A DNA stretch of 64,000 nt from the sequence record OR844765; one strand, 5' to 3'. Both the position numbers and the translations under genes were made by a program. Below are positions 21,459-22,375 of this stretch, in pieces; the stretch's first letter is position 1, and the number at the start of each line of letters is the position of its first letter. A model generated the notes under the pieces. It ran no database searches and was not told where the DNA came from. It worked only from the letters and a program-made list of their open reading frames with translations. The stretch comes from Escherichia phage ECO111 5-P.

Positions 21459-21494
21459 TTTTGTGCGTTTAGGGCAGAAAAAGTTTAAAAAGAT

Positions 21495-21523
21495 GTTTAC
21501 TCTCCTGTAGGATGTGTTACTAT
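21495..21523 (+). promoter_or_regulatory. early promoter (GTTTAC, TACTAT, 17-nt spacer)
   Basis: Upstream of ORF 21565; part of duplicated promoter-leader module. Confidence 0.6.
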
Positions 21524-21564
21524 AGACTTGTACCACCTAATCAATAAAACAGCCGGAGAATAAA

Positions 21565-21936
21565 ATGAACACTATCAATTTAAATGCTACAATTAAATGC
21601 CGTGACCATGATGGATATAAATCTCAAGTTGTTAACGAGTTACAGTGGATGGTTCGTTCAGTTCAAGGTGATGTGGTTTATTGTACAACTCCTGATGGCC
21701 CTTCAGACGATTTTTGTTATCATATCGAAATCGAAAACTTTTTCACTGGTGAAATTTACCGTTTGAATTCTACAGTTTATGGCTGTATTAGTTCTAAAAC
21801 TTACGAAGATGAAGAAACTGGTTACTCTGAAGATGTTGTATGGTACGAAAATGCCGGAAATCGCGCAGAGTCATTAATCGAGAAGATTAAAGCAAAAGGT
21901 GTTATTGATTCAGCTAAGTGGACAAAAATCAAATAA
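21565..21936 (+). CDS. hypothetical protein
   Basis: 123-aa ORF preceded by GGAGAATAAAATGAAC. Confidence 0.55.
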   Translation: MNTINLNATIKCRDHDGYKSQVVNELQWMVRSVQGDVVYCTTPDGPSDDFCYHIEIENFFTGEIYRLNSTVYGCISSKTYEDEETGYSEDVVWYENAGNRAESLIEKIKAKGVIDSAKWTKIK

Positions 21937-21939
21937 AAT

Positions 21940-21968
21940 GTTTACTTTGGTACAGGATATGTTATTAT
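21940..21968 (+). promoter_or_regulatory. early promoter (GTTTAC, TATTAT, 17-nt spacer)
   Basis: GTTTAC begins 4 nt after upstream stop; 10-bp inverted repeat TTGGTACAGG/CCTGTACCAA brackets the -10. Confidence 0.6.
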
Positions 21969-22009
21969 ATACCTGTACCAACAAACAACTTAAACATCTG
22001 GAGAATAAA

Positions 22010-22375
22010 ATGAACTACACCAACTTCGAACGCAAATATGTTTCTAACGGTATCGCTGGTTCTATCGATATGGTTTGCTTGTGGAAGCATAAAAATGGTT
22101 CAGTATGTGAAATTGAGCAGTATATGACTCCTAATTACGTTTATATGCGATTTGAAAATGGCATCACGGTTTCAATCACGATGGAAGGTTCCAACTTCAA
22201 AATTGCATTAGATGACGATTTCCGTCAACGTGATTTAGGTACTCATCCTTGCTGGAACGGTGTTAATCGTAAACTTCTGGTTAAAACTTGGATTCGTCAT
22301 ATCCTGAGTAACCAAGCTAAACCTGAACACCTAGAAGCAATCTTTGATGTAGTTCTGAACGAATTCGATATCTAA
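22010..22375 (+). CDS. hypothetical protein
   Basis: 121 aa from ATG 22010 preceded by GGAGAATAAAATGAAC (track start 21899 is an extension into the upstream gene). Confidence 0.55.
   Translation: MNYTNFERKYVSNGIAGSIDMVCLWKHKNGSVCEIEQYMTPNYVYMRFENGITVSITMEGSNFKIALDDDFRQRDLGTHPCWNGVNRKLLVKTWIRHILSNQAKPEHLEAIFDVVLNEFDI

Follow-up and report, generated by a model that had tools for sequence, protein, structure and literature searches.

Why do two neighboring genes for unrelated small proteins lie behind almost the same 80 bp of DNA? This question is raised by a locus in Escherichia phage ECO111 5-P (sequence record OR844765), of which we analyzed a stretch of 64,000 nucleotides (the window, to which all coordinates refer unless another record or locus is named). 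An earlier note, made from the sequence alone, described a promoter, leader and Shine-Dalgarno (SD)/start module copied in front of two adjacent small open reading frames (ORFs), which we identify as genes 30.8 and 30.7. We find that the resemblance is real and that the similarity of the two modules exceeds that of a typical pair of early promoters. Very probably, the locus consists of two tandem, standard T4-type early cassettes 445 bp apart, each ending in a target of the RNase RegB, with exchange of gene 30.8 of the PeSL type (described below).

Over positions 21200-22500, identity is 98.5% to Escherichia phage ChristianSchoenbein and 95.8% to RB69, both of them Mosigviruses, and judging from these identities the phage is an RB69-like Mosigvirus of the T4 type. 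The RB69 annotation gives the early cluster the gene order cd - 31 - rIII - 30.9 - 30.8 - 30.7 ... 30 (DNA ligase). The two genes and the modules that precede them are as follows:

21472..21492, plus strand: A-rich tract resembling an UP element, 5' of the P30.8 -35 hexamer (from sequence)
21493..21570, plus strand: module 1, the predicted early promoter (P30.8), leader and translation start of 30.8, with -35 GTTTAC at 21495-21500 and a 16-nt spacer
21565..21936, plus strand: gene 30.8, 123 amino acids (aa), no assigned function (RB69 annotation, PHROG 1507, segment identities and natural deletion variants)
21938..22015, plus strand: module 2, the predicted early promoter (P30.7), leader and translation start of 30.7, with -35 GTTTAC at 21940-21945 and a 16-nt spacer
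22010..22375, plus strand: gene 30.7, 121 aa, no assigned function (RB69 annotation)

Two similar modules precede two unrelated genes

The two modules can be aligned gap-free, every position being shifted by 445 bp (21493-21570 against 21938-22015), with 61 of 78 positions identical in this core (78%) and 63 of 84 (75%) over the span delimited in the earlier note, whose figure of about 70% slightly underestimated a genuine similarity. Random pairs of 78-mers from the window match at 20.6 positions on average and at 39 at most (about 200,000 trials), and the similarity of the two modules is far above chance. Every motif and copy that had been listed is present where it was said to be: ATGTTTACT at 21493-21501 and 21938-21946, the -10 blocks GTTACTATAGAC (21516-21527) and GTTATTATATAC (21961-21972), TGTACCA at 21529-21535 and 21974-21980, and the 16-mer GGAGAATAAAATGAAC, identical at 21555-21570 and 22000-22015. 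Upstream of the -35 hexamers are A-rich, UP-like tracts (AGAAAAAGTTTAAAAAGA in module 1, AAAAATCAAATAAAA in module 2). In module 1, a TGn motif (TGT, 21515-21517) precedes the -10 TACTAT (21518-21523) and a predicted start near G21530; the equivalents in module 2 are TGT at 21960-21962, TATTAT at 21963-21968 and a predicted start near G21975. Both modules have a leader of about 35-40 nt with GGAG seven bases 5' of the ATG, and the 30.8 stop codon (21934-21936) lies only four bases 5' of the P30.7 -35 hexamer. A generic in-house sigma-70/terminator scan called P30.7, missed P30.8 (8 of 12 hexamer matches) and missed the terminator after 30.9 (21441-21462, see below); it is too coarse for T4-type signals.

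By sequence, the two proteins are indeed unrelated, in line with the earlier note, which saw no recognizable relationship. BLASTP finds no similarity between gp30.8 and gp30.7 (E = 12), profile-profile comparison of small family alignments with hhalign returns a probability of 0.07%, and the proteins are assigned to separate PHROG families. At least three gp30.8 alleles exist, with 36-55% identity between alleles, against about 90% conservation of gp30.7 across genera. The T4/VR5-type gp30.8 allele is 110 aa long and the remaining alleles 122-123 aa; the shorter type lacks residues 18-21 (YKSQ) and most of an acidic segment (the SSKTYEDEETGYSEDVV region; alignment A3, columns 76-91).

The modules belong to a genome-wide family of early promoters

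A consensus for T4-type early promoters is reportedly due to Wilkens and Rueger. For this region, Truncaite and colleagues are said to have found two strong early promoters in T4, to have compared the regulatory region in 16 T4-type phages, with a conserved terminator, early promoter(s), stem-loop and RegB sites, and to have described RegB processing in RB69 and TuIa. The T4-type early promoter combines an UP-like A tract, a -35 GTTTAC, TGn and a -10, with A-rich tracts at -40 to -44 as a described trait (Nolan 2006, PMC1524935; Hinton 2010, PMC2988021). Both window sites share the UP-like A tract, GTTTAC at -36 to -31, the extended -10 (TGn), TAnnAT and a position 5' of an early ORF, and they differ in nothing essential, having a 16-nt instead of a 17-nt spacer. 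With GTTTAC-16-TACTAT (21495-21523) and GTTTAC-16-TATTAT (21940-21968), they fall within the 16-18 nt spacer range expected of such promoters. Both also match an early-promoter profile built from the window, and they are conserved upstream of 30.8 and 30.7, in the right orientation, in five genera. In RB69, early promoters were predicted at Pe:132117 and Pe:131670, both noted "1 bp del" (Nolan 2006 supplementary table, PMC1524935); module 1 is orthologous to the former and module 2 to the latter, and the "1 bp del" is the 16-nt spacer. The corresponding stem-loop and both hexamers are also annotated in the GenBank record of TuIa from the Nivinskas laboratory (AJ621579), where GGAG is marked as the ribosome binding site. 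In that record (L027, 78-86 and 101-106) the labels are swapped, GTTTACTCT being called minus_10_signal and TACTAT minus_35_signal. Given the consensus and the literature, both promoters would be expected to fire immediately after infection.

A scan of the window with the profile finds twelve early modules, all on the plus strand, with a median pairwise identity of 61%; many of them share the start region and leader (TATAGACCTATCAACAACATGAGGAAA...) in addition to the promoter. Among the 66 possible pairs, 30.8/30.7 ranks first at 77% (the next best reaches 72%), is top-ranked in every sub-block, including the non-consensus leader, and is the sole pair whose TTTAC-to-ATG distance is 69 nt. For RB69 we used 42 of Nolan's 58 promoters, a set defined independently and giving 861 pairs. 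Here the 30.8/30.7 pair ranks fifth (top 1%), and there are non-adjacent pairs above it, for example Pe:8947/Pe:51019 at 88.5%. The pair is unusually similar but lies on a continuum, and near-duplicate promoter cassettes are found genome-wide and are not a peculiarity of the locus. The notion of a private duplication is therefore not borne out: both modules are members of a T4-type cassette family, and both are predicted in RB69, where some non-adjacent pairs are closer. The earlier note had also considered that the likeness might be confined to a generic promoter and SD consensus. Most identical positions are in fact generic, but there is a pair-specific and genome-specific likeness beyond the consensus.

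The search for further copies also confirms a third occurrence of the SD/start block, which belongs to another cassette:

6683..6747, plus strand: third early promoter cassette, ending in GGAGAATAAAATGA (6734-6747), before a frd.1-like ORF

This cassette has its own 9-bp inverted repeat around the -10, ATAGGGCTA (6694-6702) and TAGCCCTAT (6711-6719). We further observe that two cassettes within 6233-6747 (TTTAC at 6233; TGTAC, in the equivalent -35 position, at 6683) flank a 130-aa ORF (6290-6682), the second placing the same RegB-type block before the frd.1-like ORF just 5' of frd. The 130-aa ORF could be another cassette-flanked optional gene.

The shared 16-mer contains a match to the optimal RegB site

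In T4, the optimal site for cleavage by RegB with ribosomal protein S1 is GGAGAATAAAA (Durand 2006, PMC1702504), and the consensus places GGA at the 5' end of an 11-nt GGAGRAYARAA (Durand 2006, PMC1702504; Uzan & Miller 2010, PMC3014915). The first 11 nt of the shared 16-mer match the optimal site exactly in both modules:

21555..21565, plus strand: GGAGAATAAAA, the SD of 30.8 and a match to the optimal RegB/S1 site (pattern and consensus)
22000..22010, plus strand: GGAGAATAAAA, the SD of 30.7 and a match to the optimal RegB/S1 site (pattern and consensus)

GGAGRAYARAA occurs three times in the 64-kb window (0.28 expected), each time as exact GGAGAATAAAA (21555, 22000 and 6734). All three matches are the copies flagged in the earlier note, and each lies in a translation start region behind an early promoter. 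The block is kept before both genes in Mosig-, Tequatro-, Dhaka-, Gapriver- and Jiaodaviruses, and at both genes of a distant IMG/VR phage the block reads GGAGAACAAAA, which fits GGAGRAYARAA. The RegB/S1 sites of early T4 mRNAs are 11 nt of single-stranded GGAGAAUAAAA over the SD of an early gene, and those of the window share the sequence and the overlap with the SD. An RNA fold of the P30.7 region leaves the GGAG block unpaired. In a read-through RNA across P30.8, GGAG is weakly paired with UCUCC, not above shuffled sequences (z = -0.15), and this 5-bp anti-SD pairing (TCTCC/GGAGA) is no better than background; the promoter-proximal transcript does not contain UCUCC. In T4, the 30.7 transcript serves as a standard substrate that RegB cuts in the SD (Juskauskas 2022, citing Truncaite 2006). 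The difference is that cutting is experimental for T4 30.7 and predicted from sequence for the window sites, both of which would be cleaved if the consensus and the T4 and RB69 literature hold for this phage. Because the 16-mer combines the SD with an optimal target of an RNase that would shut off early translation, its identity in the two modules is largely explained by function. The 16-mer had been read as SD, spacer and start, all of which are there; it is not a neutral relic, given that its first 11 nt are the optimal RegB/S1 site.

Loss or gain, replacement and probable homogenization around gene 30.8

At least nine records lack 30.8 (G2285, TuIa, PTE-Eco05, AV109, AV114, AV115, AV116, AV118 and SQ17), and what is missing is exactly one repeat unit. 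We aligned the junctions of six of these, AV109, AV114 and AV118 being single-piece matches. The single module that is left is a chimera of the two, and there are three crossover points among the six aligned junctions:

SQ17 and AV116: P30.8 promoter with P30.7 leader, crossover within the shared TGTACCA
G2285: P30.8-type up to AAAACAAC and P30.7-type after it, crossover just before TGGAG
TuIa, PTE-Eco05 and AV115: P30.8-type up to the start of the 16-mer, crossover inside the 16-mer

Loss of 30.8 would consume a direct repeat and gain of 30.8 would produce one, and in either direction this accounts for the "duplication" that was first noticed.

In phages that carry it, the gene between the modules has a history of its own. 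We compared segment identities in the order upstream region, P30.8 module, 30.8 coding sequence, P30.7 module and 30.7 coding sequence. Between the window and NBG1, both Mosigviruses, these are 98/97/68/95/96%, and between IME08 and VR5, both Dhakaviruses, 96/99/60/89/90%. Across a genus boundary, IME08 and P479 have 30.8 genes with 94% identity, and the distribution of the 30.8 allelic types (at least three) is at odds with the relationships of the flanks. In the alignment of the window with NBG1, identity is lost directly after GGAGAATAAAATGAA and regained at the GTTTAC of P30.7.

The modules themselves resemble each other within genomes. We compared both modules in six lineages under all 720 pairing permutations and find a mean P30.8/P30.7 identity of 76.3% in the same genome versus 69.3% between different genomes, the true pairing being the best of the 720. 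For instance, the two leaders of IME08 are 95% identical to each other and unlike the leaders of other genera, Boboto has GACCTGTACCACCCAAACAGATAA in both modules, and the IMG/VR phage L023 has a T-to-C change in the spacer of both. Unlike the leaders, the -35/-10 spacer groups by locus. These comparisons suggest that, in several genera, the modules undergo concerted evolution and delimit a 30.8 cassette that can be swapped. Other variants are seen at the same place. Between 30.8 and the P30.7 module, Jiaodavirus Boboto (L005, 1266-1778) and L023 (884-1500) contain an additional gene or about 620-650 bp of insert, and Serratia phage CBH8 (L006, 1417-1887) has a different gene in the expected 30.7 position, which suggests further plasticity at the 30.8/30.7 junction.

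The closest known system is the PeSL (promoter-early stem-loop) cassette of T4-type phages, which consists of an AT-rich tract, promoter, SD and start codon with a stem-loop just 5', and which has been extended to the T4/PST pair (Comeau 2014, PMC4122927). PeSL crossovers fall between the -10 and the ATG, and excised mini-circles were detected by inverse PCR (Arbiol 2010, PMC2839356). In our locus, too, a repeated AT-rich tract, early promoter, SD and start codon flank a small non-essential ORF, and it is this flanked ORF that is deleted, inserted or replaced between relatives, one chimeric element remaining. The originals in RB49 and phi1 have near-perfect sigma-70 promoters, whereas the window modules are T4-type (GTTTAC), and they have G/C-rich stem-loops just 5' of the promoter, which are represented here at module 1 only:

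21441..21462, plus strand: stem-loop GGGAGAC-TTCG-GTCTCCC followed by TTTT, a predicted intrinsic terminator after 30.9 and the stem-loop part of the upstream cassette (read from sequence)

The RB69 ortholog of this terminator was predicted by TransTerm at 132140-132157, between 30.9 and 30.8 (Nolan 2006 table), and the element carries the label stem_loop in AJ621579 (TuIa) and terminator in the entries for NBG1 and G2285. With this hairpin upstream, module 1 fits the PeSL definition fully. A second comparison is offered by the internal-protein (IP) genes of T-even phages, which have a conserved N-terminal targeting peptide. At the IP loci, variable small genes lie between conserved T4-type early promoter elements with weak AT-rich stem-loops (Repoila 1994, as discussed by Arbiol 2010). 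Alleles are shuffled among phages there as with 30.8, though the IP loci are a separate locus and gene family.

Based on these data, we propose the following model. Each cassette would consist of an A-rich UP-like tract, a -35 GTTTAC, a 16-nt spacer, TGn, a -10 TAYTAT, a short leader, GGAGAATAAAA and the ATG. The host sigma-70 RNA polymerase would fire each promoter immediately post-infection, giving separate early mRNAs for 30.8 and 30.7. In these, GGAG would serve as the SD and, with its A-rich tail, as the optimal target of RegB and S1, so that RegB cleavage would switch off translation of 30.8 and 30.7 minutes later, as experiments have shown for T4 30.7. Because the cassettes are direct repeats, phage recombination could cross over between them to delete, re-insert or replace 30.8, and the leaders would be homogenized per lineage. 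The outcome of this exchange is shown by comparative sequence, and recombination is its presumed mechanism, as in the published PeSL model of cassette shuffling.

Inverted repeats embedded in early promoters

The earlier note also pointed to an inverted repeat in the second module and suggested that it could be an operator:

21947..21981, plus strand: 10-bp inverted repeat, TTGGTACAGG (21947-21956) and CCTGTACCAA (21972-21981), with TGn and the -10 in a 15-nt loop

The repeat is real and conserved. As RNA it has a minimum free energy (MFE) of -20.7 kcal/mol (z = -4.4; not one of 200 shuffled sequences reaches this stability), with the SD outside the paired part, and the predicted transcription start of P30.7 lies inside its 3' arm. 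In nine orthologs from four genera, 97.8% of cells are paired, 7 of the 10 pairs are invariant and changes are to G-U only; a covariation test on these orthologs found no pair changed on both sides, which neither proves nor disproves the structure. Boboto keeps the complementarity with different arms, TTGGGTGGT and ACCACCCAA. The P30.8 module has no significant structure in an RNA fold and no such inverted repeat.

Similar repeats are common at other early promoters. For the 42 RB69 promoters, we tested the -35/-10 spacer of each against the region downstream of the same promoter and against those downstream of the other promoters. Watson-Crick runs of at least 8 bp occur in 10 of 42 true promoter halves (24%) versus 2.6% of mismatched ones, and none of 5000 permutations reaches the observed mean. 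The enrichment persists after collapsing paralogous copies, and it is also seen in the window's twelve promoters. The arm sequences differ between promoters, and those of P30.7 are unique to P30.7. Promoter-embedded repeats lie at the following sites:

RB69: Nolan's Pe sites in loci L024, L025 and L001
Window: 6694-6719, 16947-16968, 19069-19094, 21947-21981 and 28489-28509

Among imperfect promoter hairpins, G-U and A-C combinations number 53 versus 40 (background, 46 versus 56); this weak G-U excess is suggestive of pairing in the sense-strand RNA and is not decisive. In a second class of promoters, an anti-SD in the spacer (TTCTCCTC...) pairs with the gene's own SD, and runs of at least 8 occur in 12% of true versus 1.7% of mismatched pairs. 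For example, the spacer anti-SD of regB (RB69 Pe:61376; L025, 19328-19377) pairs with its own SD/RegB site over 14 bp (MFE -21.6), and this pairing is kept via compensatory changes in RB69, the T4-like RB3 and Merlin. In regB of TH40, the -10 region pairs with the SD-ATG instead. Similar anti-SD pairings are present at RB69 Pe:7443, 20537, 58138 and 64934, and a motB-like gene is among the early genes with an anti-SD 5' arm.

Since the predicted starts lie at or beyond the 3' arm, the embedded hairpins would form only in read-through RNA, and the P30.7 inverted repeat most likely acts as a hairpin in such RNA alone. There is precedent in T4 genes e, soc, 49 and I-TevI, whose hairpins act in read-through transcripts only, the proximal promoter starting inside the hairpin (Uzan & Miller 2010, PMC3014915). 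As in these genes, the 5' arm at P30.7 is upstream of the proximal start, and only longer transcripts would fold; their arrangement is one of a late promoter and a hidden ribosome binding site, whereas the P30.7 hairpin has the -10 inside it and the SD unpaired outside. The P30.7 hairpin might serve in attenuation or processing, act as a barrier that stabilizes the 30.8 message upstream of it, or be a structure prone to recombination. More generally, many RB69/T4-type early promoters might carry a built-in "read-through sensor", with the 5' arm in the spacer and the 3' arm at the start (P30.7) or on the SD/RegB site (regB), so that only RNA initiated upstream folds. We offer this idea tentatively and regard it as possible though doubtful. 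In the papers available to us, we did not find a read-through hairpin described as a general property of early promoters. If true, the sensor would be a general, promoter-embedded distinction of local from read-through mRNAs in translation, RegB access or stability. The promoter-embedded repeats may be recombination hot spots as well.

Alternative explanations

Could the likeness of the two modules have arisen without any exchange? Pure functional convergence on the early-promoter and RegB/SD consensus, with no common ancestry, would account for most of the identical positions, which are generic (GTTTAC, TGn, TAnnAT, the GAC-T-TA-C-A start region and GGAGAATAAAA); moreover, all early modules are 55-72% alike, the pair in T4 reaches only 69%, and other, non-adjacent RB69 pairs are closer. 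However, convergence fits poorly with a pair that leads in every sub-block of the window comparison, down to the non-consensus leader, and with genome-specific changes common to both modules (the IME08 leaders, GACCTGTACCACCCAAACAGATAA in Boboto and the spacer change in L023). Physical exchange is proven by the chimeric single modules and their three crossover points, which largely refute convergence; we judge convergence very unlikely. An ancient tandem duplication of promoter plus gene, with 30.8 and 30.7 as paralogs diverged beyond recognition and the modules as their better-conserved remnant, would suit two adjacent genes of similar size (123 and 121 aa) on the same strand, both with MN- starts after the same 16-mer. 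We rejected this candidate, as neither BLASTP nor hhalign of the small family alignments gave anything, the PHROG families differ and the two genes show contrasting evolution; we hold it to be highly improbable. Exchange between two early cassettes remains our preferred reading, and several points weigh against it. The two modules of T4 are much less alike, and the concerted-evolution signal is modest (about 7 percentage points) and could partly be lineage-specific drift of the early-promoter/leader consensus. Deletion and insertion of 30.8 are both compatible with the sequence data. Module 2 is not a textbook PeSL: it has no separate upstream stem-loop, for which the 30.8 stop codon four bases 5' of the -35 leaves no room, and its inverted repeat wraps the -10. 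Finally, regB is annotated in RB69 and lies outside the window, and for ECO111 5-P promoter activity and RegB cutting are predictions from the consensus and the T4/RB69 literature.

For the inverted repeat, the alternative to an RNA hairpin is an operator for a sequence-specific dimeric repressor of P30.7. The arms are near-invariant in four genera around a variable loop, and its overlap with the -10 and the start site is what one would classically expect of an operator. Against this, the arm centers have a spacing of 25 bp, unusual for binding by a dimer, and repeats of unrelated sequence occupy the same position at roughly one in four to one in three early promoters of RB69. An operator would be a palindrome shared among promoters or bound by a known regulator, and the P30.7 arms are not common to other promoters and are not known to bind a protein. 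The different arms in Boboto keep complementarity, the changes to G-U in orthologs fit RNA pairing, and the sister module P30.8 has no such repeat. We therefore consider an operator very unlikely and favor the read-through hairpin.

Other features of the region

A further hairpin follows gene 30.7:

22386..22401, plus strand: stem-loop GGAGGC-TTCG-GCCTCC, between 30.7 and 30.6, with no promoter; the TuIa record has a stem_loop at the equivalent position

Within 22386-22420, this stem-loop ends 3 bases 5' of the 30.6 SD (GAGGAAAATATTATG) and is without a T-run. Because it has neither a promoter nor a T-run, it looks like an RNA stability or processing hairpin and not a terminator. An Rfam scan of 21200-22600 gave sub-threshold chance matches only. 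A search for homologous loci with gp30.7 returned close relatives and one distant locus. We also note that a 59-aa homolog of gp30.9 is labeled "1,4-alpha-glucan branching enzyme, GH-13-type" in records OR352942-OR352946 and MK524178, which is almost certainly an annotation error.

Implications

The original observation is real, can be explained and is largely already known, the locus holding two catalogued promoters, two predicted optimal RegB sites and a PeSL-type repeat pair around an optional gene. What is modestly new is the evidence that the leaders evolve in concert, the finding of three crossover classes in nature and the statistical enrichment of inverted repeats within promoters, the last a by-product that possibly deserves focused study. 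For annotation, our findings carry a warning: an 80-mer that recurs in these genomes and looks "regulatory" is no less a recombination scar than a control element. The locus is a textbook case of T4-type control, in which strong early promoters with a built-in RegB shut-off would double as portable homology for accessory-gene shuffling. A single 445-bp unit is present, allele-replaced or precisely excised in sequenced phages with the crossovers visible, and this supports the PeSL model in the RB69/T4 branch.

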